Assembly: GCA_963749915.1 (NCBI GenBank)
Contig: CAVVOP010000008.1
Coordinates: 800,001 to 864,000 of the forward strand
Direction of reading: 5' to 3'
Length of the DNA: 64,000 bases
From: an uncultured cyanobacterium
GTDB lineage: Bacteria; Cyanobacteriota; Cyanobacteriia; Cyanobacteriales; Cyanobacteriaceae
Of this stretch, positions 4,901 through 64,000 are shown one piece after another. A model generated the notes under the pieces. It worked only from the letters and a program-made list of their open reading frames with translations. It was not told the DNA's origin and searched no databases. The position numbers and the translations under genes were made by a program. The first letter of the stretch is position 1, and each line of letters starts with the position of its first letter.

Positions 4901-7900
4901 CTATGGCAGTTAACCCTAATCTGGCAATTTCCGCAAAGCCGGGTAAGGCCAACATCTCCCCAAAACCCGAAAACACCTCTAAGGTAGCCCTTAATTCTCC
5001 TGCTAGGGGTTGAGAATGGGGATTTTTAAGGACATCTTTAAGGCGCTGTAATTCTTCTTGCACATCAACCTCAAATATTGATTGCACAATATCCACTCCT
5101 AAATCAAGAGAAGAGGGGATGTAGTCATCAACACGACTGAGGGCAGGTCCTAATTTACCATAAATTCTCGCCCAAATTTCATTGGCAGTAATTAATGCTT
5201 CTTCAGGGTTATAGCTTCCCGTTTCCATTTGTTGAGTTAAAGCGTTTCTTAAACAGTCAAAGGCTTCTAATAGCCAACCTTCGAGTTCTGTATCCAATTC
5301 TATGTCCGGATTGTATAATACTTTGAAAACATCTTCTAATTGGTGAGAAATTGTCTTAATTGCTTCTAGGCCTACACTAGCTGAACCACCTTTGAGAGAA
5401 TGGGCAGCTCTCATAATTTCGTGAATTTTTGCTGTGCTACGTTCTTGTCTGATGGTTAACAAACCATTTTCGATAATTTCTAGTAATTCTGGTGCTTCTT
5501 CCACAAAGAAACTATAAGATTGATCTGAAGTGTCTATAGATTCTTCTATATGCTCAATAACATAAGTGTGGGCAGGATTTTCCGTGATGGTTTCCCCTGC
5601 TAATGCCAATAACTCCTTACTGGGTTTACCCCCAGAATCTCCTTCACGAAGTGGTGTGCTGGGATCTGTTTCCATTACTTGTTGTTGGGCAATTTCTAAG
5701 TTATCGATGAAGGCTTGGGTGATAGCGGTAATTTGAGAAGGGTTGTTGTTCTTAAGGGCTTTAGCGGCGGTTTCACAAATGGCTACAAATCCGGGCAAAG
5801 CTAACATCTCTCCAAAACCTGAAAATACCTCAATTTGCATGGAAACTAAATCCTGCAATTCGGCTTCATTTCCTCGATTTAAGGCCGATTTTAAAGTATT
5901 AATCCCTTCTACCACGTCAACTTCAAAAATAGAGGTAGCAATATCAATACCTAAATCCCTGGAAGAAGGCAAAAATTCTTCAGATTTCGCAATTTCTTCG
6001 CCATATTTACCTTCAAATTCTGCCCAAAGTTCATTTGCCGATTCTAAGGCGAATTTTTCATCGAAACTTTGATCTTCCAGTCTCGCAATGAGGGGTTGAC
6101 GCAATAACTGGTAAATCTGACGAATATAAGCTTTTGTATCATCATCAAGAGGTATATTCTGGTTAAATAAAGCCTTTAAACTCTTTTCTACCTTTAAGGC
6201 AATGTTACCTAAATCCTCCAAACCTGCACTTCTGGCACCTCCTTTGAGGGAATGAGCTGCTCTTGCAATTTCGTTAACTTCGTTTATATCCCTGGTTGCT
6301 AAGGCGTTTTCTAAGCCGTCATCAATTATAGCGATCAAATCTACTGCTTCTTCGAGGAAAAAGAGATACACTTGAGCTTGTAATTCTTGTTGTTGATTTG
6401 AGGGACTCTCACTTTCTGCCTCAGTGTCCTCCTCTTCAAGGGTAAAGTTATCCATAAATGAGTCCAAATCCCCTGATTTAGCAAATTCTGAGGATATACT
6501 CCCTAAATCCCGCAAGTTTGGGGGATTTTCTCCTTGATTGGTCTCTGAATCGGAAGCTAGGGAGGCAAAATCCTTTAAATCTCCTTGATTCTCCCCAGAA
6601 TTAGGAGGTAAGGGGGCTGTATCAGGGGTTAGGGTCGAAAAACTGTCATATTGACCGATTAAATCCGCAAATTCAATGTTCTCTGCCCATTGTAGAGCAT
6701 TTTCCGAGGGGTTATTTCTTAAATCATGGGAGTTTTCTGAATCGTTAAATTGTTCTTCTAAGGGTGTTTCGCTATTAATTATTTCCTGATTTTTATATTC
6801 TTGTAATAATTCACCAAAGTCGAGGGTTGATTCCTGAAAATCGTCAACGCCCAATAATCCAGCTAATTCCTGAAGTTTACTTGAAGGTTGCCCCCCTTGA
6901 TCTCGCTGTCCTGATAATACTTGTTCTCTAGCTTCTATCAGATCGTCGATTAAATAGGTGGTAATTTGTTGAATGCGATGGGGATAATTTGTGATAGCTA
7001 AAGAAACTGTATCAGCAATGTTTTTTAACCCGACTAAATTTGTCATTTCGCTAAAACCGACTAATATTTCTAACTGTAAAGCCACATCGGTTTGTAATTC
7101 GATAATGGGCAAATTATTGAGACTTTCTTGAAGATGTTCAATAGTTTGTAAAACATCCACTTCAAATAAAGATTGCACTAAATCAATGCCTAAATCTGCC
7201 GAAGAGGGTAAATAATCATTTACTTGAATATGGCCTAATTTTTGCCCCAATTTGTCCCAGATAACTAATGCCTTTTCTTCCCATTCTGGTGGATAATTTC
7301 CGGTTTCTATTTGTTCAGAAAGGGCATTTTTTAAACAGTCCAATCCCTCTAATAAATAGGTTTCCAATTCATCATCAACGATGACACTATCATCAAATAA
7401 GGCTTTTAAATAGTCTTCTAATTTGTGGGCGATATTTTTAATACCTTCTAAGCCAACACTTGCCGCACCCCCTTTGAGAGAATGAGCAAATCGCATCATA
7501 TCATTAACTTTCGAGATACTTTTATCTTCTTTTACCGTCAGCAATCCACTTTCGAGATTGTGTAGTAAATCTGGTACTTCAGCAATAAAGAATTGATAAC
7601 TGGGATCTTCCACATTCAAGGTAGCAACATAATTTTTTGTTAATTGTTTAATGGCATTAACTTCAATTTCTGCACTGGTATCTTGTGCTAAAGTCAGTAA
7701 CGCTGAACAAGGACTACCGCCCTCTGTCTGTCCGTGAAGCGTGTCTCTGTTCTCGCCCTGTAAGACAGATTCTTGACTTTTTTCCAAATCTCGAACTAGC
7801 AAACTAGCGATGGTAACCGCCTTATCAGAATGATTTTGTAAGGCTTGTTGAGTGATATTGATCAGTAGGGAAAAACCAGGTAAGTTGACGAATTCGGCTA

Positions 7901-8474
7901 ACCCCGTAAGAATATCGAGGGACTCTTGTAATTCTTGGGAGGGGTTAAAACTTTCAGGAGAAGCCGCTAAACCTTTTAAACGAAGAATTTCTTGGGCAAT
8001 ATCTACTTCAAAAATCGAGGCTACCATGTCAACGTCTAAGTCTTCGGAAGAAGGGAAATAATTTTCTACTTGTTCAAGGGCATTACCTAATTTTAATTCC
8101 AATTTTTCCCACACCTCATCCGCACGATTTTGTGCCTGTTGACGATGGAAATTACCCGTTTCCAACTGTTGCCCTAGGGGAATAGCTAAACTATCATAAC
8201 CGGCCAAAAAGAGATCTTCCAACTCAGTATCAATAACTAAATCTTCGTTATAAAGTGCCTTGAGATAATCCTCTAACCGATGGGCAATATTTTTGATCTC
8301 CTGCAAACCAACACTAGCCGAATACACCTTAATGGACCGTACCGATCGTATCATGGCATTAACAGTGGAAGTACTTTTATGCTCCCTTAAATTCAGTAAG
8401 CCGTTTTCGATTTCTTGTAACAGTTCTGGTACTTCGTCAACAAATAACTGGTAGGCTTGATTTAGTGGATTCAT
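1917..8474 (-). CDS. Hybrid CheA-like histidine kinase (PixL/TaxAY type): 4 Hpt-like repeats, dimerisation, HATPase, CheW and receiver domains
   Basis: Three AHSLKGG motifs plus one degenerate copy; DPLVHLIRNGFDHG, IKDDGGG and GRGVGLD kinase motifs; C-terminal receiver (VVDDS...ICDIEMP...KP). Confidence 0.93.
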   Translation of the reverse strand: MNPLNQAYQLFVDEVPELLQEIENGLLNLREHKSTSTVNAMIRSVRSIKVYSASVGLQEIKNIAHRLEDYLKALYNEDLVIDTELEDLFLAGYDSLAIPLGQQLETGNFHRQQAQNRADEVWEKLELKLGNALEQVENYFPSSEDLDVDMVASIFEVDIAQEILRLKGLAASPESFNPSQELQESLDILTGLAEFVNLPGFSLLINITQQALQNHSDKAVTIASLLVRDLEKSQESVLQGENRDTLHGQTEGGSPCSALLTLAQDTSAEIEVNAIKQLTKNYVATLNVEDPSYQFFIAEVPDLLHNLESGLLTVKEDKSISKVNDMMRFAHSLKGGAASVGLEGIKNIAHKLEDYLKALFDDSVIVDDELETYLLEGLDCLKNALSEQIETGNYPPEWEEKALVIWDKLGQKLGHIQVNDYLPSSADLGIDLVQSLFEVDVLQTIEHLQESLNNLPIIELQTDVALQLEILVGFSEMTNLVGLKNIADTVSLAITNYPHRIQQITTYLIDDLIEAREQVLSGQRDQGGQPSSKLQELAGLLGVDDFQESTLDFGELLQEYKNQEIINSETPLEEQFNDSENSHDLRNNPSENALQWAENIEFADLIGQYDSFSTLTPDTAPLPPNSGENQGDLKDFASLASDSETNQGENPPNLRDLGSISSEFAKSGDLDSFMDNFTLEEEDTEAESESPSNQQQELQAQVYLFFLEEAVDLIAIIDDGLENALATRDINEVNEIARAAHSLKGGARSAGLEDLGNIALKVEKSLKALFNQNIPLDDDTKAYIRQIYQLLRQPLIARLEDQSFDEKFALESANELWAEFEGKYGEEIAKSEEFLPSSRDLGIDIATSIFEVDVVEGINTLKSALNRGNEAELQDLVSMQIEVFSGFGEMLALPGFVAICETAAKALKNNNPSQITAITQAFIDNLEIAQQQVMETDPSTPLREGDSGGKPSKELLALAGETITENPAHTYVIEHIEESIDTSDQSYSFFVEEAPELLEIIENGLLTIRQERSTAKIHEIMRAAHSLKGGSASVGLEAIKTISHQLEDVFKVLYNPDIELDTELEGWLLEAFDCLRNALTQQMETGSYNPEEALITANEIWARIYGKLGPALSRVDDYIPSSLDLGVDIVQSIFEVDVQEELQRLKDVLKNPHSQPLAGELRATLEVFSGFGEMLALPGFAEIARLGLTAIDINPTHAAKIIEIIIRDAGNARDLVLKGERTTGGQSSRELRRFAENYIKDDEEEENYLLDTEQEEQEEREDNNFEDRPSLTDVFGALQSATEEIFTMVPEDGETKTNNPSLEEVFNFNVNDDDQIEAIHQAIQEDEEDENIPSLEDIFASEFSGEEIELLAKASELALEEDKNQTIPSVSEIFSNMDTSVIDARGEEQENIVSPSLSEIFSNVDIPVIDQVGEQEEKEGTESTPSLESVFELESLPLNGDMEEVAPSLGDLLSVQNQISSVTTFLEEEEQINALENIDEVIKSIGDVFPKLPGLKTSEEIGGSFKNKGQKVSEKPQPEVKLTSAPTKSNLTVRVDLERLERMNNLIGELSINRNGLSLQNDKLQTSVKELLERFMRFQQMANNLRDLSDKMVASPDKFRTRNGKKNQFSSLPFSMGEEGEFNLASAFDSLEMDSYDNMYYVVQGLIEQMIQLEEAVDDIALFAGQSGQTVENQRQMLNRLRDELMWARMLPLGEVLNRFPRVLRDLSVKYHKKVNLKLSGTNVLVDKAALEKLYDPLVHLIRNGFDHGIETPEIRKQRGKPETGIIEVKAYHQGNQTIIEIKDDGGGLNLHRIGQKAVERQLLTPEQLAVTTKENLFNLIFEPGFSTAAAVTEISGRGVGLDIVRSQLRSLKGTISVDSEPGLGTTFILRLPLTLTIDKLLVLSAENHFYALPSDNIEEIIVPEEHQLKTSANKRFLHYENKVIPIYSMTDLLKYRCYLSNNRVTSLALEVLPTPEEWGNPLLLMRLGQELFAIEVDNLVSEQELVIKPFGSALTAPSYTYGCTILGDGTLIPVINTVTLLANFLEASQPKTTLRPRGFSGINVDKTDNKPVNAFQAASVLVVDDSAAMRRTLALSLEKSGYRVLQAKDGKEAIEQLQQSSNVSLIICDIEMPNMNGFEFLGQRRRYPELNKIPVAMLTSRSNDKHRKLATHLGANAYFTKPYIEQKFLQSIRALIEQKSPVTL

Positions 8475-8605
8475 AGCAATTGATAGGATTTTTTGTCAAG
8501 GATTTTTTCTTGAGACTTCTTTCAGAAGTTAGGGAATAGGAAATAGGGGATATGTTATGAAGTCGCCAAAGTTGTGGATTTAGGAACTTTTAAGTGTTCA
8601 TTGTT

Positions 8606-11600
8606 TTAACCTACTTTAAACCGGGAAATGTTTGACTCTAGTTTTCGGGCTACTTCTTGTAATTCTACAAAAGAATCCGATAATTGAGTTACAGAAATGG
8701 TGGTTTTTTCTGCGACTCTGGCTACACTACTCATTTTCAATGTGACCCCCTCGGAATTCTTTGACTGTTCAAAAGCAGCGGCGGCGATGGCCTCTACTAA
8801 TTCGTTAATTTGGGTGGTAGCGGCGGCAATCTGGTTTAAACTTTGGCGGGTTTCTTCTACCTGTTTACTCCCTTCGACTACCTGTTCACTACCTTCCTCC
8901 ATTGCCGTAACCACAACTTTAGTTTTACTGAGAATCTCATTAACCAGTTTATCAATGTCCGCAGTTGCTTGGGCTGATTGGGTCGCTAAAGCCCTTACTT
9001 CTTCAGCAATTACGGCGAAACCCAGTCCTTGTTCCCCCGCCCGTGCCGCTTCAATGGAAGCTTTTAATGCCAATAGGTGAGTTTGGGCAGCAAATCGTCC
9101 AATAAGTCCGACTACTGTTGAAATATTTTGAGTAGTATCTCCTAATTTTTTCACCTGTTCGGCGGCTTGTTCTACAGTAGAGCGAATTTCAATAATAGAT
9201 CTCACCGTACGATTCATCGCGGAGTCGCCTATTTCCACACTTTCTCGTGCTTGTTGTAGGGCTTCTTCTGCTTGTTCAGCACTTTCAGCCACTAAGTTAC
9301 TAGAACGACTCATTTGATTGATAGTTTCTAAGGCTTCGGAGATGTTTTCCACCTGTTCTTCCATCTCCTGACGCAGGATTCTGACATCATTTTCGTTAGT
9401 GGTGGTAGTTTGAGCTACTTCCAAAGTCGCCTTTTGTACCTGAGAGACAATTTTTCTTAAACTTTCAATGGTGGCATTATAAGAGTCAGCGATGGTCCCA
9501 ATTTCATCTTCCGTTACCGAGGCACGAATGGTTAAGTCACCCTGAGAAACGGGATCAACTTCCATCAGTAAGTTTAAGGCCCGTCTTTGTAATAATTCTT
9601 TACCTTCTCTTTGTTCTTTTTCGGAATTCAACTGTAATTCAATAAGTTTTACCCGTTCCAAACTTAAACCTACCTGGGTGGATAATTGGCCGAATAACTC
9701 TATTTCCCGGTCCTCCCAGTCACGCACATCGGAACATTGATGACAGATCAACAAACCGATTAATTTACGGTTGACCAGAATGGGTGCAACCAAATTTGCT
9801 CTGACGGCAAAAGGTTCTAATTGTCTGAGGTGACAATCTGTTAAACCTGCTTGGTAAACATCGGCGGTGGCTTGAACTCTACCCTGTTGATATTTTTCCA
9901 CATATTCATCAGCAAAACAAGGATCAGCAATGGTGGCGCCTAATGCAGTTGGAAAATTTAAACCCACAGATTCAGCGGTAATCGTACCTTGCCAATTTTC
10001 GTCAAATTCATAGATGATGGTACGATCAGTCTTTAAAGCCGAACGAATTTGACTGACCGCGGTATCTAATACTTGATTCCGGTTTAAACTCGAGGCTAAA
10101 GCAAGGGTGATTTCTTTGAGTTGTTCCGCCCTGTTGATGGCGGCCATTTGATTCTTAAGGATATTCACCCTGTCTAAAATAACCCCAAATCGTAGGGAAA
10201 TTTGGCCCAAAAAGGAGATTTCTCTTTCTTCCCATAGATGATGTTGTCGGCAATGGTGGGCGATCAATAATGCAAATAATTGTCCTTGACTAACAATAGG
10301 TACAACTAGATTAGACTTGATTTTTAAACGGTGCATTAAGGCTTCGTGTTCAGGGGCAAATCCTGCGGTATAGACATTTTCTGTGGGTACAACTCTACCG
10401 TTAATATAAGCCTGTCTTAATTCAAAAGGGATACAAGGATCATTAATATTTTCAGTAAGGGCACTAGGTAAATCTAAATCTCCTGCTTCGTTACTTATGT
10501 AACCACTAGCATCGGGTTTGAAACGATAGATAACGAGACGATCGACTTCCAAAATTTCTTTAGCTTTAGGTAAAGCTCGATCGAATACTTTATTCACGTC
10601 ATCTTCGTTAAGGGTAGTCGAACTAGTAATTTCTTGGAAAAGACTAAGTTTATTAGAGTCTAACATCAAAATAGATTCGTTTTGTTCAATGTTATCTGCT
10701 AAGTAGTTGAAAGTGTTGGCCAGTTTTCCGATTTCATCTTTGCCAATAATATCTGCCCGAAGACGATGATTGCCTTCGGCAAATTTTTCCGCCGTTACCT
10801 GTAAAGACTCAATGGGTTTTGCGATCGCCCGTCCTAAAATCACAATCAACAAGACGTTAAAAATTAACACCCCTACGGCAATTTGTCCTTGTGCGCCCAA
10901 ACTACTAGAAATAATTTGGTTAAGGATAGTTTCTCCTGTGCCCCTTACTAATACTCCTACGGGCTGCCCGTTAAAGTTTTTCAGGATTCCAGCTGTAAAA
11001 GTATAAGTTGTTTCCCCTACCTGATCTCGAAGGGAAACAATATCATCGAGATTTTTTAAGGCCAGGGTGAGCAATTTTTCAGTGGCAATGGTTTGTCCTT
11101 TAGCGGTTTCGTTTTCCGTTAAAGAACTAGCCACATCAAATTTTTGGTCTTCAGTAATTTTATAAATACCACTATATCCTCCACTAAACTCTCTAATAGT
11201 GTCTTCCACAATAGAAAATTTACCGTCAACCACATCTCCTGAGACTAATACTCCAATTACTTGGGTTGTCCCCGGACGAAATACAGGGGTAAAAGTATAA
11301 CGGACTAATAAATCTTGATTTTGCGGCAAACTGGCTAATACTGGTGGCGATTCCTTCACTAAATCTTGCCAAGGAAGGATTTCGGTGGTTTTTATTTGTT
11401 GGGGATTATTAATAACTTTTTGGACTAAACCGTTGGGGTTAAAAACTTGTCCGGTGCGATCGCTATTAGCATTAACAATGATTTTTTGATCTCTACCGAC
11501 TAAAGTGGCGTATTCAATATTTCTCGCTTTAATTTCATTTTGGAGAATTCGTCTAAGGATTCCCCGTTGTTGTGGAGTTAAAGCACCGCCATTAACCTTA

Positions 11601-11974
11601 GTCAAAGCAGCGTTAATAATGGCAATATTATCAGATTGTCCACGAAAACCGAACCCCATCTGATTAACTTTAATACTGTAGTTAATTTTGGTAGCTTCTA
11701 ATTCCGATTTTGATTGGTTGACTAGCTGTGCTCTACCCCCTTCAATCACCTGTACTACTCCCACCCCTAATAATGCCACGATGGAGACAGTTTGGGCGGT
11801 CAATAATACGATAAGTTGTTTTTTACGAATAGAGAGATTATAAAACCATGCAACAATGGGAGAACGTTGTTTGGGCGATGGGGAAATAATACCCCGATCC
11901 TCCATGGGCTGTGATGACTCAGAAGTGGTTTTGTCGTCAATATTTAGTTTTGGTCTTTCTGGTGCTTGTGTCAT
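8606..11974 (-). CDS. Methyl-accepting phototaxis receptor (PixJ-like): TM, periplasmic domain, HAMP, two CBCR GAFs, MCP signalling domain
   Basis: GAF1 DPCIP...PEH; GAF2 DPCF...DCH; MCP hairpin [31 protein letters not shown]. Confidence 0.9.
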   Translation of the reverse strand: [1122 protein letters not shown]

Positions 11975-12080
11975 GGTTCCTTAGTTAACAATTGATAGTT
12001 GAGGGACGGGCAAATTTTAAACAATTAAGGTCAAAAATGGTGGGTTGTTTTCGCATAATTTCCCCATTATGGTCCATGGC

Positions 12081-15000
12081 TTATTTGACTTTGAATTGAC
12101 TGACACTTCGTTCTAGGTTTTCAGCTACCCCTAACAGTTTTTTGAAACTTTGAGATACTTTTGTTACCGCCGTGGAGGTATCGTTAGAAATTCCCGCTAC
12201 ATCTGCCATAGTTTTCGTAATATCTTCGGAGGTTCGGGACTGCTCTGCGGCGGCGGTGGCGATCGCTGTTACTAACTGGTTAATTTGGGCTGAGGCATTA
12301 GTAATGTCAGTCAAGGAGGATCGGGTTTCTTCCACCAGTCTTGTACCCTTTACTACTTGTTGTGTACCAGATTCCATCGCCTTGACTACTTCGTTGGTTT
12401 CTTCCTGAATTTCAGCAACCACCTTCTCGATTTCCGCAGTGGCAGAGGCGGATTGACGGGCAAGAGATCGAACCTCTTCCGCTACCACCGCAAAACCTCG
12501 TCCTTCTTCCCCCGCGTGGGCTGCCTCAATAGAAGCATTTAAGGCTAAGAGGTTAGTTTGATCCGCAAAACTACTGATGAGGTTAACTACTTTAGAAATT
12601 TTCTGGGTGGATTCCCCTAGACGTTTAACTTTTTTTGCCGTTTCCGCTACGGTTTCACGAATGGCAAGAATACCATCTACTGTGCGGTTCATGGCGACGT
12701 CCCCTTCCTCCACACTGCGGTTAGCCTGTTTAACCGCTGTTTCCGCTTGTTCGGCGTTATCGAGTACCAGACGAGCGGAAAAGGCCAAGGTTTGGATTTT
12801 TTCAAGGGCGATATTAATGTCATCCCCTTGGCGGATAATCTCTGTTGCTAAATTTTCCACAAATTCTTCTTGTTCGACAATAACCTCACTTACCGCTTTT
12901 GTACCCCCTTGTACTTGGGTTACAATTCTTCTTAAACTCTCGATGGTGGCATTATAAGAGTCAGCGATGGTCCCAATTTCATCTTCCGTCACACTAGCAC
13001 GAATGGTTAAGTCACCCTGAGAAACAGGATCAACTTGCATGAGTAATTCTAACGCTCGTCGTTGGATGGTTTCCCTTGCTTTTATTTGTTCTAACTCCGA
13101 TTGTTTTTGTTTGGCTAACAATTGTATTCGTTCTAAAGCAGGACCAATTTGAGTAGCAAGTTGAGATAAGAAAGTACATTCTGAATCTGTCCATTGACGG
13201 GGGGCATCACATTGATGAGCGATTAATAATCCTAGTAAACTACCTTCGACAACAATGGGAGTAACTAAGTTAGCTTTAACTTCAAAAGGTTCTAATTGTT
13301 GGATGTGACAGTTGGTTAATCCCGCGGTGTAGATGTTATTGGTAGCTTGCACTCGCCCTTGTTTATATTTATCTATATATTTTTCGGCAAAACAAGGATC
13401 TTTGATATTTGCCCCTAATGCCCTGGGATATTTAGGATCTACCGATTCAACAATAATTGTCCCTTGCCAATCCTGATCAAAGGTATAAACGATTACTCGA
13501 TCTGTTCTCAACGCTTCTCTACCCATGTTAGTAGCTACTTCAAACACCTTATCTTTGTTTAAAGATTCAGCAATTTTGAAACTAATATCCTTTAATTTAC
13601 CAGACAAGAAAGTGTCTAACTGCTGAGATTGTAACAACATTGCCCGTTCTAAAGCGGGTCCCATTTGGGTGGCAGTTTGTGTGAAAAAATCTATTTCACT
13701 ACTTTCCCAGTTGCGGGTAGATGAACATTGATGGGCGATTAATAACCCTAATAATTTTCCATCTGCGATAACGGGGGCAACTAAGTTAGCTTTGACGGCA
13801 AAAGGTTCTAATTGTTTGAGGTGACATTCGGTTAATCCTGCTTTGTAAATATCGGAGGTGGCTTGTACCCGTCCTTGAATATATTTATCTACATATTTAT
13901 CGGCAAAACAAGGATCAAGAATTTGCGCTCCTAAGGCTTTAGGATAATTTATGTCAACGGATTCAGCGATAACTGTCCCTTTCCACCTTTCATCAAAACT
14001 ATAGACAATTACTCGATCAGATTGCAACGCCTGTCGAATTTCCTTCACGGCAATTTCAAAAACCTCTTTAACATTGAATGCCTTAGTCATTTCTAGGGTA
14101 ATATTTTTCAATAAACCAGACTGGTTAGCGAATATTTGTTGTTCTTGTAGAAGGTTTCTCAATTGTTTTGTCATTTGGTTGATGTTTTTACCCAAAGTCG
14201 CAATTTCATCGTTACCTTGAACATCTACCTCTATGTCTAAGTCCCCTGCACTAATTTTTTTAATAGTATCAGTGGTTTTTTCCAGGGGGGTAATAAGACG
14301 TTGTGCTAAAATATAGGCGATATAACCCACCAAAGCAGATGATAAAGCTACCCCTAAGAAAATAAAGTTTAAAATTCTGTTAATGGGGGCTAAAACAACA
14401 TTAGTATCCCCTGCAACAATCGTCGTCCAATTCAAACCTAACTTATCTTGTACCGGATTAAATTTTTGGAAAGTAATGATTTGTTTGGTATTTGTTAACT
14501 GATTTTTGTCGGTAATACTTGATATTCCTGAATCATCTTCTACCCACTTTAGTTTTGGAAAAACTTGGTCTATGTTAATGGGTTTCAATTCTTGATCTTT
14601 AATGACTCTCCCCGCTGAGTTTTTGTTATTCGTTAAAAATTCATCTAGGGTGGATAAAAATAATTCGTTATTTGCATTAGCTAAATAAATAATTTCTCCT
14701 TTTTTTGCTTCACTTTTAGTAAGAATTTTTTGTATTGTTTTAACGGGTAGCCGACTACGGATAAAGCCCTCATTTTGCCCTGTAACGGGATTTTTTAACA
14801 CCGAAGCAAAGTAAATATTAAAAGTGCCATCAGTACCTGAAATTAATGGTTGACTAATAACCGCACCATTTCTCGCTTTGGCTTCCTGTATATAACTTCG
14901 GTTAAGATGATTTTCTAATGGTTTTCCTTCAGTTTGGGCTATAGGATTACCTTGATTATCAAAAATAGCGATACTATTATAATAACCATAAAGTTTTTGA

Positions 15001-15476
15001 ATTTCATTCAAACTCTTTGATAGTTCAGCCTTGTTTTTGGTTCGAAAAGCAGAAGTTTCGCTGAATTTTTTAGCAAAAGTTTGTATGTCTAAAAAGCGAT
15101 CATTAATCAGTAAATTAATTTCCCTAGATACCAATTCTAATTCTTGTTTTTCTTGATTTTCGATTTCCATCCGGAATGAAGAATTAACCAACCCTGAAAT
15201 TATGGTACCGACAAATAAAACGGGCAAAACCCCTAAAGTAATGGCTACAGCAGTACTTTTAAACTTAAGATTTTGGTTCTGCCACCAAGTAACAATCTCT
15301 GGATCCTTTTTCTTTTGCCTAATTGGTTGATTTGTTTTATTTTTACTTACTGATGATGAAATAATGGTAGGTGTAGTTTGACCGTTGCTCGATGATTGAT
15401 TAATAGGAGAAGAAACGTTATTTTTGGTTTCAACTTTTTTTTCTTGATCGGGTTGTTGTGGAGAAGTTTGGGTCAT
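12081..15476 (-). CDS. Methyl-accepting phototaxis receptor (PixJ-like) with Cache-like periplasmic domain, HAMP and two DXCF CBCR GAFs
   Basis: Both GAFs carry DPCF and CH (ECH, NCH); MCP hairpin [31 protein letters not shown]. Confidence 0.9.
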
Positions 15477-37921: not shown

Positions 37922-38672
37922 ATGGGGAAGAATATGGATTTTGAGTATTATTTGGCCTGTGGAAGTAAAGATGCGGTCTCAATCAGTTCTCAGCCAGGGA
38001 TTTTGTTGATTGGAGGAGCAGAAGGGGACAAATCGGGTGAGCATGAAGCAACTCAATGGTTTCTTGCACGAGCCAAAGGCGGTAAATATTTAGTGCTTCG
38101 CACTGGGGGTATAGGGGGTCAAGCCAAATGGATTTGTCAGCATTATCGAGATTGGGTTCATTCAGCGGCTGAACTTTCTATTGATGGTCGTGAAGCCGCC
38201 AATGAACCCAAAGTTATCGACTATATTCGTGAAGCCGATGCCCTGTTTATAGCGGGAGGAGATCAAACTAAATATAAAAAATATTGGGAAGGAACCGAGA
38301 CACAGAAGGCACTTAATTATTTGATTAATGACAAGAAAATTCCCGTGGCCGGGACAAGTGCTGGGATGGCTATTTTAGGAGACTATTACTATGCTCCCGA
38401 TAATAATGGAATTCTGAGTTCAGAGATTCTCGATGATCCTTTCCACTACAATACCCACAGCCTTTATCGAAGCCACTCCTGAGCAAATGGAACCTGGCTG
38501 GCCACTGATTTGGAATAACCAAGGGAAGGCCGTAAAAGTTTACCAAATTTCGGGAACTCGGGAAGGGAGTGGTTATTTTGACTTGAAAGATTGGTCTACC
38601 GCTAAGGATGGAACATGGGAATATTGGTACACAGTCGGCGGCAAGTCTGGATTAACAAAAAAACCATTCTAA
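37922..38672 (+). pseudogene. Cyanophycinase-like (peptidase S51) gene, internally deleted and frameshifted
   Basis: LLIGG, FIAGGDQ and AGTSAG in 37922-38482. The apparent C-terminal part is in another frame (38433-38672), and the segment expected to carry the catalytic His/Glu is absent. Confidence 0.65.
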
Positions 38673-39432: not shown

Positions 39433-40182
39433 TTAATTACTTACGGCACCTTCGATGGTTCTTAAAAAGAAATGAGTATCAATGTTATCTTTTAAACGAT
39501 ACAATTTCGCGGGACGTTTGGCATCTTGACGCATTTCGGAGGTTTCCTCTAAAATTTCTGCTTTGGCAATACGACGACGAAAGGATTTTGTTTCTAAAGT
39601 ATGATCAAGAATTACCTCATAAACTTTTTGTAAATCCCCAAGGGTAAATTTTTCAGACATCAAGTAAGCTGGTAAGGAAGTATAAAGTACTTTATTGCGT
39701 AAACGTTCGATGGCCTGACTTAAAATTTCGTTATGATCAAAGGCTAATGACTCTATTAGTTTATTTTTGACGATGGGCGACCACTTGATCTCGATGGCAC
39801 CTTTTCCCGCTGTAAGTTGAATTTTATCATGGGGCAATAGGGCAAAATAAACAGTAGTTACGGACCATCCTCGAGGATCCCGGTGTTTATTGCCAACGGT
39901 AAAACACTGCTCTAAATAGGGCGTTTTTACGCCAGTTTTCTCCTCTAATTTACGTCTTGCGGTATCCTTTAAAGTCTTATCATTATCCAAGTCGATAAAA
40001 CCGCCAACTAATGCCCATTGATTTTTAAAAGGATAGTTTGCCCGTCTTACGAGGAGAACTTGCAAAGATTGCTCAAAAACTGTGAAAATTACGGTATCTA
40101 CTGAAGTACTGGGGCGATCAAATTTTCTCGGATCGTAATCTTTGAGAAATTCTGCTTCAGAACTGTAGTACTTTTCTTCCAT
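39433..40182 (-). CDS. nrtR: NrtR Nudix-related transcriptional regulator
   Basis: Degenerate Nudix box GGFIDLDNDKTLKDTARRKLEEKTG, RDPRGW, LAFDH, and wHTH FTLGDLQKVYE...SFRRRI...RPAKLY. Confidence 0.9.
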   Translation of the reverse strand: MEEKYYSSEAEFLKDYDPRKFDRPSTSVDTVIFTVFEQSLQVLLVRRANYPFKNQWALVGGFIDLDNDKTLKDTARRKLEEKTGVKTPYLEQCFTVGNKHRDPRGWSVTTVYFALLPHDKIQLTAGKGAIEIKWSPIVKNKLIESLAFDHNEILSQAIERLRNKVLYTSLPAYLMSEKFTLGDLQKVYEVILDHTLETKSFRRRIAKAEILEETSEMRQDAKRPAKLYRLKDNIDTHFFLRTIEGAVSN

Positions 40183-40196
40183 GATCTATTTTTCCT

Positions 40197-41678
40197 TTAA
40201 AGATGACTCTCAATACGTTGGCGAATATCCGAAAGGGTATAACTTTTGACTAGCTTACCATCGAGAAACACGATTTTTAAAGCACCTTGTTTTTCCTGTT
40301 CTACTGTTTGTTGTTCATATAAAACATAAGTATTGCTGTTTTCCTCAACTCTCAATAAACCTTTAGCGGATTTTTTTGTACCTCCGTCGGTTTTAGGATT
40401 TTTAAAAATATCTCGGCGATCGCCATTAACTATACCGCTAGTGGCTTTTACGGCAAATCCGAGGTTATCCCTGGTGACGTATTGATAGGTATATGAACCA
40501 ATGCCAAAAACCACATTCCCCGAAGCAAATCCTTTTTTATCCAATCGTTGTAAGATGTTATCAGCCCGATCGAGGGTAATAGAATCACCGTAAATCAAAC
40601 CAATATGAGAATCAAGCATTTTATATCCTGTGGGGCTAAGACTACCGCCAAAAATTTCCCATAAACATTCTACAGCACCTTTATATTCAGGGCTACCTTG
40701 GGAGGCCCTAAAATCTCCACAAATAATTTTAACAGGATCTCCACTATCAGGACGGATAACTAACTTACCATCCCGTGCTAGAATTTTATTCTTGAGGATG
40801 ACCGTATATTCCGTTATCACTTTCCAAAAATCCCAGGTATCGGCAACAACGGAAATAATACCTTTGGGGTATAAATCTTCGATGAGTCGGCGAAAGGTCT
40901 CTAATTCTCCGTCTTGCATACCCATGGCCATGACAGAATGTTCCGTAGCTGCCACAGAAACACCGATCATCTCATGATCTGCATTGGCACTATAATAATT
41001 TTCTAGTAGATCGATTGCTAATACCGTATCAGTACCACAAAAAGAAGTAAGGTGAGCTGCACCACTAATTATGGCATCCTGTACACTGGATAAACCCCGA
41101 AAAGAAAAATCATGACATTGAAAGGGTATAAAATCTAAGGGCGTTCCTGTTTTTAAGGCATAATTTGTCATTAACTTTTTATATTGATAGGCTGTTGTAG
41201 CAGATGTTATCGGTTTCCATAAATAACAGGACATCACTGACTCAATATAATTAGTTAACCAGAAAAAATCAGGATGAGTATTTACCACTGTCAATAGAGG
41301 TATTCCTATGGAAACTAGACTTCCCTCCGGCAATGCCTTAATTTTGAGAGGTAAATATCCTAAATCGTAGAGGGCACAAATATGTTCGAGAGGAATTGCA
41401 CCCACTCCCAAGGAAGTATCCATGCGTCTTTGATAGGCGGAAATTACCGTTTTTTTATCCTGTTGAAAAAAGTTTTCGTTCCAACAATCAATTAGGTAAT
41501 CTTTGATAAAATATTGTAAGCCAAAAAACACGACTCGAATGTCATCGGAATCTAAAACTTTGGCAAGACGACCACTGCGAGGGGTAAAATTAGCATAAAC
41601 TTCCGTTGTACCTTGAGGATATTGACGACGGTGATCGGTTTTGTAAAAATCAATGGCATTAAGGGGATTTATTTTCAT
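40197..41678 (-). CDS. Nicotinamide phosphoribosyltransferase family protein (NadV or Namat-like)
   Basis: DFYKTDH..QYP, NFTPRS, HDFSFRG, ATEHSVM, IRPDSGDP and IYGDSI motifs; likely start at MKINP (41678). Confidence 0.9.
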   Translation of the reverse strand: MKINPLNAIDFYKTDHRRQYPQGTTEVYANFTPRSGRLAKVLDSDDIRVVFFGLQYFIKDYLIDCWNENFFQQDKKTVISAYQRRMDTSLGVGAIPLEHICALYDLGYLPLKIKALPEGSLVSIGIPLLTVVNTHPDFFWLTNYIESVMSCYLWKPITSATTAYQYKKLMTNYALKTGTPLDFIPFQCHDFSFRGLSSVQDAIISGAAHLTSFCGTDTVLAIDLLENYYSANADHEMIGVSVAATEHSVMAMGMQDGELETFRRLIEDLYPKGIISVVADTWDFWKVITEYTVILKNKILARDGKLVIRPDSGDPVKIICGDFRASQGSPEYKGAVECLWEIFGGSLSPTGYKMLDSHIGLIYGDSITLDRADNILQRLDKKGFASGNVVFGIGSYTYQYVTRDNLGFAVKATSGIVNGDRRDIFKNPKTDGGTKKSAKGLLRVEENSNTYVLYEQQTVEQEKQGALKIVFLDGKLVKSYTLSDIRQRIESHL

Positions 41679-41761
41679 GGTTTTTTCTCTGGTAAAAATT
41701 TGATAAATTTGGGATTTCGATAAATTTGGCATAGGCTTTTGGCCTGTATCGTTAACCTAAG

Positions 41762-42592
41762 CTATATTAGGGAGTGGGGTAAAATGGTCAAAAAATTACT
41801 ATCTTGTTCTTCTGGGAATAGCATGGTGTGACAACAATAAATTTGATTAAAATATGGCCGTAATGGCTCTAATCCTTTAGAAAAAATGCCATGGGTAACA
41901 TAAAGAGCAATTTCCTGAACCTCTTTTTCTTGAAGTACTTTTGCCAATTCGATAAAGGTTCGCCCACCATCACAAATATCATCTACTAAAATCACTTTTC
42001 GCCCTCTAACATCATCATGAAAGGTGCTAAAGAGAATTTTCCCTGTTTTTGTATCACGAATTTTACTGGCACAAAAAACATCAAGGTATTGCCCAGATTT
42101 TCCTATACGTTTAGCTACTTCAAGGGTTTTTTTCTCTGCACCAGCATCAGGGGCGATCAAAGCCCAGTTTTCTTTTTCAAGCCTTTTTCCTAAGTCACTA
42201 TCAGCTAAAATATCAGCTTGGGTTACTACATGACAGTTATTTAATAAAGCGGGAGTCACATCAGAATGAGGATCAATAATTACAATGCGATCGCACTTTA
42301 AGCCGTTGATCAAATTTGCCATTACTTTAACACTCAGAGGTTCCCCTGGATTACAAACTCGATCCTGTCTAGCATAGGGAAAATAAGGAATAATCAAATC
42401 AATAGTGACGGTGGTTAAAATACGGCGAATAGCATCAACGGTAAGTAATAAAGCGATAATATCGTTAGCACTGTTTAAAATACCTTTAATTACTGTTTTT
42501 GGGATCACAGTCCGCGGTGATAAGGTCACCTGGCATTCTCCTCCGGGAAAGTTAAAGGTTTTTATCTCGCAATCATTGACTAATATGGGCAT
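41762..42592 (-). CDS. Short ribose-phosphate pyrophosphokinase family protein (Prs or Adps-like)
   Basis: FPGGE, PYFPYARQDR, DPHS, APDAGA, VDDICDGGRTF and YVTHGIFS motifs; 276 aa. Confidence 0.9.
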   Translation of the reverse strand: MPILVNDCEIKTFNFPGGECQVTLSPRTVIPKTVIKGILNSANDIIALLLTVDAIRRILTTVTIDLIIPYFPYARQDRVCNPGEPLSVKVMANLINGLKCDRIVIIDPHSDVTPALLNNCHVVTQADILADSDLGKRLEKENWALIAPDAGAEKKTLEVAKRIGKSGQYLDVFCASKIRDTKTGKILFSTFHDDVRGRKVILVDDICDGGRTFIELAKVLQEKEVQEIALYVTHGIFSKGLEPLRPYFNQIYCCHTMLFPEEQDSNFLTILPHSLI

Positions 42593-42638
42593 TTTTTTAC
42601 TCTCTTTGATAAATTAATGGCTTTAAGCCATTAAATAT

Positions 42639-42659
42639 ATAATGTCATAGAGACACTTA
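42639..42659. promoter_or_regulatory. NrtR operator overlapping the promoter of the prs-nampt-nrtR operon
   Basis: 21-bp dyad ATAATGTC-ATAGA-GACACTTA. Minus-strand TTGACA lies at 42668-42663 and a TGnCATTAT -10 falls inside the dyad. Confidence 0.75.
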
Positions 42660-42700
42660 TAATGTCAAGGAGTTATCCCAGAAAACTCATCGAATTAAAG

Positions 42701-43291
42701 TTATGGATAAATAAGAGGGTAATTTTCTGGAGGAAGATAAACCCCGTCACAATCAGGCTTATGGCGATATTCGTTTAATTCAAAAGCTGAATTATGCCAT
42801 TTATACTGAGCAAAACTACCACAATCCCCTAAACCTCTAGTTTTCGTCTCTAGTATTAAAATTTGACTGAGGGGATCAAATTCTGCTGTACCGGTTAAAG
42901 TGTTAGTATTAGTTAGCCTTAAATTGTCACTAATATTGCTGTCAAAGGTGGTAAAGTCAATCACCCTAATTTCTGAAGATGCTTTATCAAATAAAATATA
43001 TTGATAGTTGCCCTGATAAGCACCGAAAAAGCATAAAATCTCTACCAAATATGTTTGGTTATTTAATCGATATATATTAGCAGAATTTTTTGATAACTTA
43101 TTATCTCGCTCTTGATTACATAAATTTAAAGTTTTTTGTTGACTGTAAATTATCTTGATTATTTCTTGCTTTTTTTCAGGAGTTATAGTTACTAATTCTT
43201 CCGATTTTTTTGCTTCTAGTTGACAGCCCAAACTATTTACTATTAATCCATAAATGATACATTTTAAAATTTTGAAAGAGAAATTGGACAA
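42701..43291 (-). CDS. DUF1176-like lipoprotein
   Basis: Lipobox SLGC; CFFGAYQ and KTRGLGDCG motifs. Confidence 0.7.
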   Translation of the reverse strand: MSNFSFKILKCIIYGLIVNSLGCQLEAKKSEELVTITPEKKQEIIKIIYSQQKTLNLCNQERDNKLSKNSANIYRLNNQTYLVEILCFFGAYQGNYQYILFDKASSEIRVIDFTTFDSNISDNLRLTNTNTLTGTAEFDPLSQILILETKTRGLGDCGSFAQYKWHNSAFELNEYRHKPDCDGVYLPPENYPLIYP

Positions 43292-58090: not shown

Positions 58091-59383
58091 ATGGAAGCGG
58101 TTTTTATTATTATTGGTGGATTTATCGGTGCAGGTATAATGTTTTTTGTAAAACCAAATCAAACAGATAACGCTGTTATCGAAGAGGAAAGACAAAAGGC
58201 GTTAAATCAAGCAGAAAAAGATTTCGAAATTCGTAAACAAGAATTAATTGCATCTCTAAGCCAGCAATATCAGGCTGAGGCTAATCAGAAAATTGCTGAC
58301 ACGGAGAAAGAATTTGAAGCACAAATTCAAAACTATCAAAATCAAATCACCGAATTAGAGACAACTATTAGTAACTCGCCCCCTATCGAAGATCAAAGTG
58401 TTGAGTTACGAAATACCATTTTAGAATTACAAGCTAGAATCAGTGAATTAGAGGCGGGAGTTGCAACTTCTGAATCAGATGATAGTGTTAGGGTAGCAGA
58501 ATTAGAGCAACAACTCCAACAACAGGCACAAGAATTTGCAGATAGACAAGCCGAACTGCAAGAATCTTTCCAAATTCAAATCGAACAATTACAATCTGGT
58601 CATCAAGAGGAAATTCAAGATTATCAAATCCAAATCGACAATTTAAGAAATAGTTTTGCCAATATTGCTACTCCAGTGGAAGAAAGCACTAATGTGGTTG
58701 AAGAATATCCAGTTGAAGAAACTAATTATTCTGAGAATACTGTTGATGAAATTTCAGCGTCACCCGAAGAAGAAATTACTCCATCTGCAGAAGAAACTTT
58801 TGATACTTTTGATACTGGGTCAGATTTATCTCCAGAGAATGAATTAGAAGAAATTGCTACCTCGGAAGAAGATTTTAACCTCGATGCTTTTTCTGAATCT
58901 GCTTCTGCTTCTGTGGAATCTGATGTAGAAATATTTAGCGAAGGTTTAGATTTATCTCCAGAGAATGAATTAGAAGAAATTACTACCTCGGAAGAAGATT
59001 TTAACCTCGATGCTTTTTCTGAATCCGCTTCTGGTTCTGTAGAATCTGATGTGGAAATATTCAGCGAAGGTTTAGATTTATCCCCAGAGAATGAATTAGA
59101 AGAAATTGCTACCTCGGAAGAAGATTTTAATTTCGATGCTTTTTCTGAATCTGCTTCTGGTTCTGTAGAATCTGATGTGGAAATATTTAGAGACAATTTG
59201 GATTTATCTACGGAATATGACTTTAATCTCGACTTAGAGTTATCTGAGATTTCTGATGATGAGAATGACTTAGATTTATTTGCTTTAGTTGATGACGACA
59301 ATTCTGTTTCTTCTGATGAACATAGCAATGACGATTTCGATTTCGATGCTTTATTGGACGACGAATCTGAGAATAAATCATAG
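58091..59383 (+). CDS. Membrane-anchored coiled-coil protein with acidic repeat tail
   Basis: N-terminal TM, Q/E-rich coiled coil and D/E-rich C-terminus. Confidence 0.75.
   Translation: MEAVFIIIGGFIGAGIMFFVKPNQTDNAVIEEERQKALNQAEKDFEIRKQELIASLSQQYQAEANQKIADTEKEFEAQIQNYQNQITELETTISNSPPIEDQSVELRNTILELQARISELEAGVATSESDDSVRVAELEQQLQQQAQEFADRQAELQESFQIQIEQLQSGHQEEIQDYQIQIDNLRNSFANIATPVEESTNVVEEYPVEETNYSENTVDEISASPEEEITPSAEETFDTFDTGSDLSPENELEEIATSEEDFNLDAFSESASASVESDVEIFSEGLDLSPENELEEITTSEEDFNLDAFSESASGSVESDVEIFSEGLDLSPENELEEIATSEEDFNFDAFSESASGSVESDVEIFRDNLDLSTEYDFNLDLELSEISDDENDLDLFALVDDDNSVSSDEHSNDDFDFDALLDDESENKS
58823..59209 (+). repeat. Three 126-bp in-frame tandem repeats (42 aa)
   Basis: GATTTATC unit starts at 58823, 58949, 59075 and 59201. 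Confidence 0.92.
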
Positions 59384-63363: not shown

Positions 63364-64000
63364 TTATAAATAAACTAAATTTTCAGGTAATTCCGACAAC
63401 TTAAAAAGACTATCTTCCTGAATAATAATATCCCGAAAAAGTTTCTTAGTTTGAGAAGGTAAAATTAACACTTTCTCTGATTTGACCACCGAATTTTTAA
63501 ACCCTCCTAAATCTTGATTAGTTTCTACATAACTCACCAGACGACGAAACAATTTAGGTAAAATAATGACGTTTTTTTCTTCATCAAATAAATCCCAAAC
63601 ATGAAAACCTTTATTCGTATAATCAAATTCCCAGACCCCCTTATTTTGTTTCCTTGCATGATTAACCCCCACCGTCATTTCTCTTCTTAAAGTAGGGGCT
63701 AAACCACGATAATAAGTGGGGTAAGATTCTCCGTGTAAGAGACTTTGATAATTAACTGATTGGACAAATAACTCTATAGGTAAAAAGAAAATATCCCCAT
63801 CTTTAACATCAATTTTCCCCTTAAACACAAAACCTAAAGGACGACCATGTTGGTCGGTTTTTTTTGCCAGAATAAAACCTTCAATATTATCTTGTGCTTC
63901 GATGATTAAATTTTCTTCTTCATGCCATTTTACTCCATCAATTTCTAGGTATTTTAATAAAAAATCAGCCGCACTCAATGCCCATTTAGTACTCTGTTGA
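63364..64000 (-). CDS. Thermonuclease (SNase)-like protein, 5' end beyond window
   Basis: The frame is open to the window edge (QQSTKWALSAAD...); DQHGRPLGFV, SVNY..L..G..YP and AR....GVW are SNase-like motifs. Confidence 0.6.
   Translation of the reverse strand, partial: QQSTKWALSAADFLLKYLEIDGVKWHEEENLIIEAQDNIEGFILAKKTDQHGRPLGFVFKGKIDVKDGDIFFLPIELFVQSVNYQSLLHGESYPTYYRGLAPTLRREMTVGVNHARKQNKGVWEFDYTNKGFHVWDLFDEEKNVIILPKLFRRLVSYVETNQDLGGFKNSVVKSEKVLILPSQTKKLFRDIIIQEDSLFKLSELPENLVYL

Follow-up and report, generated by a model that had tools for sequence, protein, structure and literature searches.

A probable chromosomal operon of the phage NARP1 type, under predicted NrtR control, in a cyanobacterial family

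What a second prs homologue does beside a NAMPT homologue and the gene of the repressor NrtR is the question raised by a short operon on the chromosome of an uncultured cyanobacterium. NrtR-regulated prs-nadV operons have been described from Shewanella oneidensis, Acinetobacter sp. ADP1, Chromobacterium violaceum and Cytophaga hutchinsonii, where the joint regulation of nadV and an additional prs was described as 'quite unexpected', with a significance 'yet to be elucidated' (PMC2330246). For the window (the whole stretch of 64,000 nucleotides that was analysed), the sequence-only reading had proposed a tight minus-strand operon in the order prs-like, NAMPT-like, nrtR. The three open reading frames were confirmed at 39433-42592 as one compact operon, all on the minus strand, coding for an Adps-type Prs homologue, a Namat-type NAMPT homologue and NrtR. 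The features of the locus are as follows.

39433-40182, minus strand: nrtR, 249 aa, degenerate Nudix sensor domain and winged helix
40197-41678, minus strand: namat-like gene, 493 aa from the second ATG (41678)
41762-42592, minus strand: adps-like gene, 276 aa
42614-42634, no strand assigned: predicted NrtR operator 2, a 21-bp palindrome, nearly perfect, built on a GGC-N5-GCC core and covering the inferred start of transcription
42639-42659, no strand assigned: predicted NrtR operator 1, with a GTC-N5-GAC core, lying across the -10 and the spacer of the promoter
42639-42668, minus strand: sigma70-type promoter, -35 TTGACA (42668-42663), 18-nt spacer, extended -10 TG-n-CATTAT (42644-42639)

The namat-like frame also opens at an upstream ATG at 41732 (40197-41732, 511 aa), and the second ATG at 41678 is the start found in relatives. 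The genes are separated by 29 nt between adps and namat (83 nt to the second ATG) and by 14 nt between namat and nrtR. Their GC content (37.5-38.5%) matches that of the host, and the flanking genes are pst, metK, clpC, pheS, secA and chemotaxis genes. PADLOC returned only weak PRT-fold matches. A DUF1176 gene (42701-43291) was considered as a further operon member and rejected, as it ends upstream of the promoter and no such gene stands beside the operon in two extended relatives.

The product of the namat-like gene scored 543 bits to SPbetaL1 Namat (9w5w/9w5x), at most 243 bits to mammalian NAMPT and 215 bits to the NAMPT 7yqo. Its adenine clamp, GSYTYQYVTRD at 412-422 (numbering from 41732), agrees throughout with the published Namat signature, GSXxXxXxTRD in which the residues at positions 3 and 7 are aromatic. 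The stacking residue of the clamp loop, SPbetaL1 R40, is R55 here, and SPbetaL1 D13, Y15, F189, R192, D215 and R306 correspond to D28, Y30, F209, R212, D235 and R327. The catalytic His lies in an ATEHS motif, and the DFYK...NFTPRS-type motif noted earlier was found in the protein. Phylogeny placed it with the Bas63 and ICP1 proteins (SH-aLRT 99), apart from KVP40 NadV and the nadM-linked cyanobacterial NadV (100), and an AU test rejected its grouping with NadV (p 7e-61). NadV/NARP2 (KVP40 NadV and the Synechocystis-type nadM-nadV) shares the fold, the catalytic core and nicotinamide salvage with this protein, and the Synechocystis nadM-nadV is likewise under NrtR control. However, the KVP40 and cyanobacterial NadV are only 30-31% identical to it, lack the clamp (GMGG.LLQ..RD) and have NadM, not Adps, as partner. 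We infer that the 493-aa protein is of the Namat type and would convert ADPR-PP and nicotinamide to NAD+ and PPi, with PRPP to NMN as a likely side activity.

A similar picture emerged for the 276-aa protein, which scored 282 bits with the phage profile phrog_619 versus 145 with TIGR01251, and is 41% identical to ICP1 Adps, 38% to Bas63 Adps and 27-29% to E. coli Prs and the canonical Prs of its own genome. Its PP loop (DDICDGGRTF) is the same as that of Bas63. By sequence alignment K177 corresponds to ICP1 K185, and the protein stops before the C-terminal helices of Prs (the alpha11-alpha12 module; 276 aa versus 315 and 331 aa). Most Adps pocket residues are common to canonical Prs, and the ICP1 adenine contact F92, which is C80 here and V, C or M in other rows, is not family-defining because Bas63 has M at that position. 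In the Prs tree the protein joins the Adps of Bas63 and ICP1 (95), and 16 canonical Prs stand separate from it (99). The AU test did not reject a constraint that holds it together with the full set of 16 (p 0.33), so the Prs tree alone cannot rule out a canonical placement; a clade with cyanobacterial Prs was rejected (p 1.3e-5) in a narrower test picked after the p 0.33 result. The constraint to all 16 only shifts the long joining branch onto the window's protein. All trees were quick searches without bootstrap on 47 and 37 hand-picked rows, and one row on a very long branch (L122) was excluded from the AU tests. The earlier proposal that the pair is closer to phage Adps/Namat than to Prs/NadV thus agrees with profile and PDB scores, trees and sequence signatures alike, and in the comparisons it had suggested against the canonical enzymes both proteins grouped with characterised Adps and Namat. 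Neither NadV-clade placement, a DDMIDT loop, a full-length Prs nor a partner NMN adenylyltransferase was seen for the window's pair. The 276-aa protein would accordingly be an Adps-type Prs homologue, predicted to use ADPR together with ATP to form ADPR-PP and AMP.

The third protein carries PF00293 and PF21906, an N-terminal Nudix-like domain with a perturbed signature (Nudix box RKLEEKTG) and a C-terminal winged helix. Its best PDB match is 3gz5/3gz6 (218 bits), it is 47% identical to S. oneidensis NrtR, and it scored 280 bits with NCBIfam NF050029, under the cut-off of 400. R104 aligns with the R98 whose R98E mutant serves as a non-responding sensor control. These features suggest a Shewanella-type autorepressor released by ADPR. 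The promoter consensus match taken alone is at chance level (14 found versus 14.1 expected); the promoter is kept in 9 of 9 cyanobacterial loci (-35 TTGACA in seven, TTGTCA in two). Operator 1 fits the published GT-N7-AC core (PMC2330246), and operator 2 is a GGC/GCC core variant common among the nearest loci. A palindrome filter of at least 12/21 matches missed operator 1 (10/21), and weight matrices were used instead. The first matrix, built from 88 gammaproteobacterial sites before the pattern of the second was chosen, ranked operator 1 (42639) first among nine genome sites above 13 bits. The second, for which 32 sites at 22 loci outside the cyanobacteria served as training set and whose site pattern was picked after seeing the window's operator 2, ranked operator 2 first (27.3 bits) and operator 1 second (21.0 bits) among 16 sites above 14 bits in the 4.69 Mb genome. 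The next site by that matrix scored 17.4 bits. A third-ranked operator-like site at C22:31555 was set aside; two genes converge on it, with their 3' ends on either side. Both operators are present in all nine cyanobacterial loci (the window's own counted), always with operator 2 placed 25-26 bp downstream of operator 1, and in three relatives in which nrtR has been relocated elsewhere both are still at the operon. The operator claimed at the outset is therefore real and above chance, as two tandem sites and not one; NrtR control of the operon, also claimed, is supported by the two conserved operators and the kinship to the ADPR-released S. oneidensis NrtR.

The remaining NAD genes of the genome are relevant to the reading of the pair. 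A separate prs and nadM had been named as something to look for, and a canonical prs was found (C30:20138-21148) whereas NadM was not. Among 18 genomes tested 12 have a second, Adps-type Prs, and all 12 also have the canonical one. NadM, PncB, PncA and NadR were not found in the 100%-complete genome; CinA/PncC, NadD and NadE are encoded elsewhere in it, together with a native nadD-nrtR pair and six more Nudix proteins, one of them NudE/NudF-like, below cut-offs. The stated lack of nadM, nadD and an intact Nudix gene thus holds for the window, not for the genome, which has nadD, CinA/PncC and the six Nudix genes. The missing NMN adenylyltransferase is a weaker argument than first proposed, because with CinA/PncC, NadD and NadE encoded elsewhere an NMN route is possible without NadM. 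The operon is the only entry to nicotinamide salvage found in its cyanobacterial family.

It occurs in 4 of 6 genomes of the genus, 8 of 19 of the family and none of 41 others in the order, its genes being intact and conserved across three genera. In the best 80 of 424 related bacterial GTDB loci, a NAMPT-like neighbour was found in all 80 and nadM in none; nadM was adjacent in seven of nine cyanobacterial genomes with a NAMPT-like protein of lower identity (G229 aside). The clamp was found in 78 (loose) or 66 (strict) of the same best 80. These loci include nrtR in 71 cases, which is not an unbiased rate because they were chosen by likeness to the window's Adps and are related; among 14 extended Bacteroidota loci it was seen in only five (six stop short of the operon head). 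Genes releasing ADPR travel with the adps-namat pair: NADAR, Tpt1 or DraG occurred at 9 loci out of the best 80 of 424, and at 11 of the 14 from Bacteroidota, often placed between adps and namat, and a macro domain was also seen.

Phage NARP1 (Bas63, SPbetaL1, ICP1; bioRxiv 10.1101/2024.02.11.579819; PMC12774641; PMC13586617) shares with the window the gene order and clades, the Namat clamp and catalytic residues, the Adps PP loop, the catalytic lysine and the C-terminal truncation; relative to Bas63 and ICP1 the identity is 38-41% for Adps and 43-53% for Namat. Unlike it, the window's pair is chromosomal and comes with nrtR and two operators, both absent from the three phage loci examined. 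The bacterial pair of Paenibacillus foliorum is active in vitro and in vivo (PMC12774641), and chromosomal NARP1 was already counted by AntiDefenseFinder (bioRxiv 10.1101/2024.08.21.608784); both, P. foliorum being compared by description, are non-mobile Adps-Namat pairs like ours. The operons of PMC2330246 share with the window the trio, tandem operators with the same core and a second prs paralogue, in ADP1 even the identical order prs-nadV-nrtR, yet were published as PRPP/NMN salvage; the cyanobacteria in that work had other NrtR regulons, nadM-nadV and pncB-nadD-nrtR-nadE.

We are fairly confident that the locus is a chromosomal NARP1 operon induced by its substrate, in which ADPR would lift repression and ADPR, ATP and nicotinamide would yield NAD+ in two steps. 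Judging from operator position and homology, NrtR on both operators over the promoter would repress adps-namat-nrtR, itself included. Free ADPR, from NAD+ cleavage or the removal of ADP-ribose marks, would bind the non-catalytic Nudix domain and free the DNA, a release shown in 2008 for the S. oneidensis protein (PMC2330246). A search of the genome for a source of this ADPR found none, which speaks against the reading. Adps would then make ADPR-PP from ADPR and ATP, and Namat would join it with nicotinamide directly to NAD+, needing no NMN adenylyltransferase; these reactions have been shown for phage and Paenibacillus enzymes (PMC12774641 for Paenibacillus). Repression would resume as ADPR falls. 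Where ADPR-PP is scarce, Namat probably makes NMN from host PRPP, from which CinA/PncC, NadD and NadE could complete NAD+. One cyanobacterial family probably gained the cassette by horizontal transfer, and there the cassette would now be a housekeeping or stress-recovery module rather than a phage gene.

The classical salvage of 2008, in which ADPR is the inducer but is cleaved by a Nudix enzyme to ribose-5-phosphate, dedicated PRPP comes from the second Prs and NMN from NadV, and CinA/PncC, NadD and NadE finish, we regard as unlikely. All its downstream enzymes (CinA/PncC, NadD, NadE, the six other Nudix proteins) are encoded, one AU test leaves the Prs beside canonical Prs (p 0.33), and a NadM-like gene is present, unlinked, in one Acinetobacter genome that carries the trio. 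Studies by Galeazzi (2011) and Sorci (2010) reportedly describe NMN-route salvage in Shewanella and Acinetobacter, which counts in its favour. Against it, overexpression of nadV and pncC in S. oneidensis changed NAD(H) and nicotinamide use only minimally; with the transporter added NAD(H) did rise, which shows some salvage of outside nicotinamide. In vitro, Namat does show NAMPT activity, but the clamp is needed solely for the ADPR-PP reaction (PMC12774641) and is nevertheless kept in 78 of the best 80 of 424 loci, none of which has a linked NadM. The Adps that has been characterised formed a product from ADPR but none from the canonical sugar phosphate.

A role in conflict, whereby the enzymes restore NAD+ after the cell's own NADase defence or an incoming NADase or ADP-ribosylating toxin, would fit the patchy distribution and the neutralisation of SPARSA by bacterial NARP1 in E. 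coli (PMC12774641); we think it quite unlikely. The SIR2/TIR trigger suggested earlier found no counterpart: of the families searched, SIR2_2, TIR_2, SIR2, RES, CAP12-TIR, Tpt1 and NADAR gave no match in the genome, and others, such as SEFIR, ThsB and ADP-ribosyltransferases, may occur there. Among 18 family genomes TIR_2 (3), RES (3) and CAP12-TIR (1) did not track the operon, and the window is housekeeping chromosome and not a defence island. The genome does hold an ADP-ribosylglycohydrolase-like match of only 47 residues, with no NCBIfam match, and a macro-like domain within an 845-aa protein. That the locus is a prophage remnant or a newly captured phage counter-defence cassette without a host role is very improbable and largely refuted already. 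Of 50,697 phage records, 1575 do contain a homologue of Adps and 2047 a NAMPT-like one; however, the neighbours and GC content are those of the host, the intact genes are conserved across genera, the closest relatives outside the cyanobacteria are cellular (about 70% identity in Namat versus 53% for ICP1), and three phage loci examined had neither nrtR nor operators.

Since chromosomal NARP1 and the prs-nadV-nrtR trio are both already published, the window's operon is one more bacterial NARP1, and the gain from this locus alone is modest. Sequence evidence says that the NrtR prs-nadV operons of PMC2330246 and the bacterial NARP1 of PMC12774641, whose role was said to need further study, are the same operons; both papers' questions could therefore be addressed by one LC-MS assay in the organism with the crystallised repressor. 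Our literature search found no paper connecting NrtR with NARP1: NrtR is unmentioned in the text and supplement of PMC12774641, and the AntiDefenseFinder preprint (bioRxiv 10.1101/2024.08.21.608784) was absent from the NrtR and NARP1 results. Taken as one joint proposition, it is probable that prs-nadV, the textbook target of NrtR, is NARP1 and not PRPP/NMN salvage, the S. oneidensis operon among the rest. ADPR would induce a NAD+ recycling loop and also serve as its substrate; the loop would close on itself, be distributed across several bacterial phyla and frequently be accompanied by the ADPR-releasing enzymes NADAR, macro, Tpt1 or DraG, and phages are presumed to have taken its two enzymes without the repressor. 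If true, this would explain the pairing found puzzling in 2008. The operon whose adjoining NrtR is identical to the S. oneidensis protein that was crystallised is likewise of the Adps/Namat type, with Ala in place of the PP-loop Asp in its Adps and His at position 7 of its clamp.

The operon quite probably works like NARP1: every defining feature that can be looked for in the sequence was found, and we infer its chemistry and induction. Its three genes lie where the sequence-only reading had placed them, the start of the second (the NAMPT homologue) most likely being 41678, as in relatives. The Prs homologue is Adps-like by sequence. It scored 282 bits to a phage family and 145 to the general Prs model in a profile search, is 38–41% identical to the Adps of Bas63 and ICP1 and 27–29% to E. 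coli Prs and its own genome's Prs, and carries a Bas63-type PP loop and catalytic lysine; its pocket residues are mostly common to Prs and hence not diagnostic. The C-terminal module, whose loss is a defining signature of Adps in the part of PMC13586617 covered, is absent. A quick tree of 47 rows put it inside the Adps group (support 95), with canonical Prs apart (99). The phage-type affinity first proposed for it is thus borne out by profile scores, PP loop and tree, with mixed results from the AU tests: a constraint joining it to the full set of 16 canonical Prs was not rejected (p 0.33), and one joining it to six cyanobacterial Prs, picked after the outcome of the former, was (p 1.3e-5). 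Outside the cyanobacteria its closest kin come from alpha- and gammaproteobacterial, Micavibrio and verrucomicrobial MAGs, suggesting horizontal gain. At another locus (L135/L151, G229:C1:2646646-2648920) an Adps-type Prs (DDICDGGGTF) adjoins a NAMPT-like gene whose product misses the clamp (GVGGILRNHSRD) and falls beyond the Namat group in the tree, with no nrtR in the 11 kb around; this protein is possibly an intermediate or of different specificity.

For the NAMPT homologue, profile, motif and tree all argue for a Namat and uphold the earlier view that it is phage-type rather than NadV. It scored 543 bits against SPbetaL1 Namat (9w5w/9w5x, so identified in PMC12774641), 467 against 9ke8 and no more than 243 against mammalian NAMPT. 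The marks of Namat in the covered portions of PMC12774641, a clamp motif missing from NAMPT and a stacking arginine, were all found in the alignment, as were the catalytic residues. In a 37-row quick tree it grouped with Bas63 and ICP1 (support 99), separate from KVP40 NadV and nadM-linked cyanobacterial NadV (100), and forcing it into NadV was rejected (AU test, p 7e-61).

A pair of the same type stands in an operon like that described in 2008. As far as the covered text of PMC2330246 goes, EMSA showed Shewanella oneidensis NrtR on tandem sites ahead of prs-nadV, ADPR is its best releaser from DNA, and the prs-nadV pairing, found only there in the literature searched, was termed unexpected. 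3GZ6 is this NrtR bound to DNA, and the NrtR of our locus L100 (genome G133) is identical to it (237/237 residues). At L100, nrtR is followed by two high-scoring predicted operators, an Adps-group Prs homologue of 301 aa (loop DDICAGGRTF) and a 'NadV' with the clamp GSFTYQHVTRD and 575 bits to Namat vs 233 or less to NAMPT. This pair departs in two places, Asp to Ala in the PP loop and His at clamp position 7, and its activity cannot simply be read across from the characterised enzymes. Acinetobacter prs-nadV-nrtR loci show the same pattern. On the other side, Galeazzi 2011 and Sorci 2010 reportedly may show salvage by the NMN route with enzymes of this clade.

The surroundings in the window are ordinary cyanobacterial chromosome of uniform composition. 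Predicted control elements are as follows.

Upstream of the operon: sigma70-like promoter, by sequence match
42639-42659, upstream of the operon: predicted NrtR operator 1, by weight-matrix rank
42614-42634, upstream of the operon: predicted NrtR operator 2, by weight-matrix rank

Operator 1 ranked top genome-wide with a matrix of 88 sites from gammaproteobacterial loci; with this matrix three phage loci scored below zero. A second matrix (32 sites from 22 non-cyanobacterial loci), whose training pattern was picked after sight of operator 2, ranked operator 2 first and operator 1 second in the genome. Both operators and the -35 element are conserved in 9/9 cyanobacterial loci, three of which keep both operators with nrtR relocated. 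In L147-L149 (G017, G015 and G010, one genus) the operon-type nrtR now adjoins a metal-uptake ABC operon, with no operator of its own. The nrtR frame of L012 (G007:C4:658127-658873) is interrupted twice by TGA stops, both operators being kept; the repressor may be broken, or the assembly may be in error.

The host genome, 100% complete, encodes the separate canonical prs that was to be checked for, along with nadA, nadB, nadC, nadD, nadE and CinA/PncC. Its nadD adjoins a second, cyanobacterial-type nrtR (G000:C30:4529-5816) without pncB, the gene usually preceding in cyanobacteria and not found in this genome. The NAMPT homologue is the sole PF04095 member, and the queries used gave no NadM, PncA, NadR or PnuC, so that no entry for nicotinamide other than the operon was found. 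The lack of NadM noted for the window was also seen genome-wide with these queries, but an NMN route via PncC is possible. The suggested NADase (SIR2/TIR) trigger has no support in this genome: NADases and ADPR-releasing enzymes of seven families had no match in the host genome. ADPR might instead come from non-enzymatic NAD breakdown, enzymes outside these families, or phage or competitor enzymes.

The Namat-type gene occurs in 4/6 same-genus and 8/19 same-family genomes and in none of 41 others of the order. A phylum survey (401 genomes) gave 14 matches, four of them Namat-type, all in the family, and seven nadM-nadV. Among the best 80 of 424 Adps-related GTDB loci, a set biased to kin of the window's Adps and including three duplicate relatives already counted, a NAMPT-like neighbour was present in 80, the clamp in 78 (loose) or 66 (strict), nrtR in 71 and nadM in none; the closest named relatives were Geminocystis and Cyanobacterium MAGs. 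In 10 of these 80 (L024, L025, L030, L035, L044, L049, L051, L057-L059) the trio is joined by an SPFH/Band 7 gene and by one encoding 311 aa that has no Pfam match and looks NAD-kinase-like by eye; NT5C appears in five. Zavarzinella formosa (L072) has namat in two pieces (4820-5683 and 6157-7053) and no nrtR nearby. The genes around the trio in L002 (CAKLQF020000015.1), a record under the name 'Acinetobacter phage MD-2021a', are chromosomal in kind, and the nrtR there is annotated as bifunctional NMN adenylyltransferase/ADPR pyrophosphatase.

Among 401 Bacteroidota genomes 16 carry the Namat type, two with nrtR within 1.5 kb; extending the other 14 loci to ~13 kb revealed nrtR in five, six falling short of the operon head. 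NADAR, Tpt1 or DraG genes were present in 11 of these 14, frequently placed between adps and namat, with a macro domain in addition in one locus. Enzymes of the NADAR, Tpt1, DraG and macro types release ADPR or its phosphates; these neighbours fit ADPR as substrate. The enlarged operons (L184-L196, nrtR-adps-...-namat, with NADAR, macro, Tpt1 and DraG in between) also hold a metallophosphoesterase, a 2OG-Fe oxygenase and an adenylosuccinate-synthetase-like gene.

Chromosomal NARP1 is already published and the window operon is one more case; what it chiefly offers is a link between two questions that published work leaves open, rather than the locus itself. In the covered parts of their work, Osterman et al. 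noted non-prophage copies, suggested housekeeping or regulatory use and considered that transcription may be ADPR-regulated in some bacteria. According to the AntiDefenseFinder preprint (bioRxiv 10.1101/2024.08.21.608784, portions covered), non-mobile regions are enriched for NARP1, which was counted 469 times in Acinetobacter, and the P. foliorum pair is active (PMC12774641, whose text and one supplement, as covered, do not mention NrtR). No paper combining chromosomal NARP1, ADP-ribose and a repressor was found in the literature searched. Nor was an NrtR-NARP1 or NrtR-Adps link, the one paper that turned up for each pair drawing none in its NrtR passages. Subscription papers, supplements to bioRxiv preprints and figures (e.g. 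Fig. 5F of PMC12774641) lay outside the scope; such a link may already be in print.

Elsewhere in the window, ORFs at 58091-59383 (+, 430 aa) and 63364-63978 (-, 204 aa) had no Pfam match at 1e-5. A 186-aa cyanophycinase/peptidase S51-like ORF (37922-38482, +) covers about half of the profile and is possibly truncated, and a phototaxis-type cluster (1917-15476, -) comprises a CheA-like kinase, in which four Hpt stretches are seen, and two tandem GAF-HAMP-MCP receptors.
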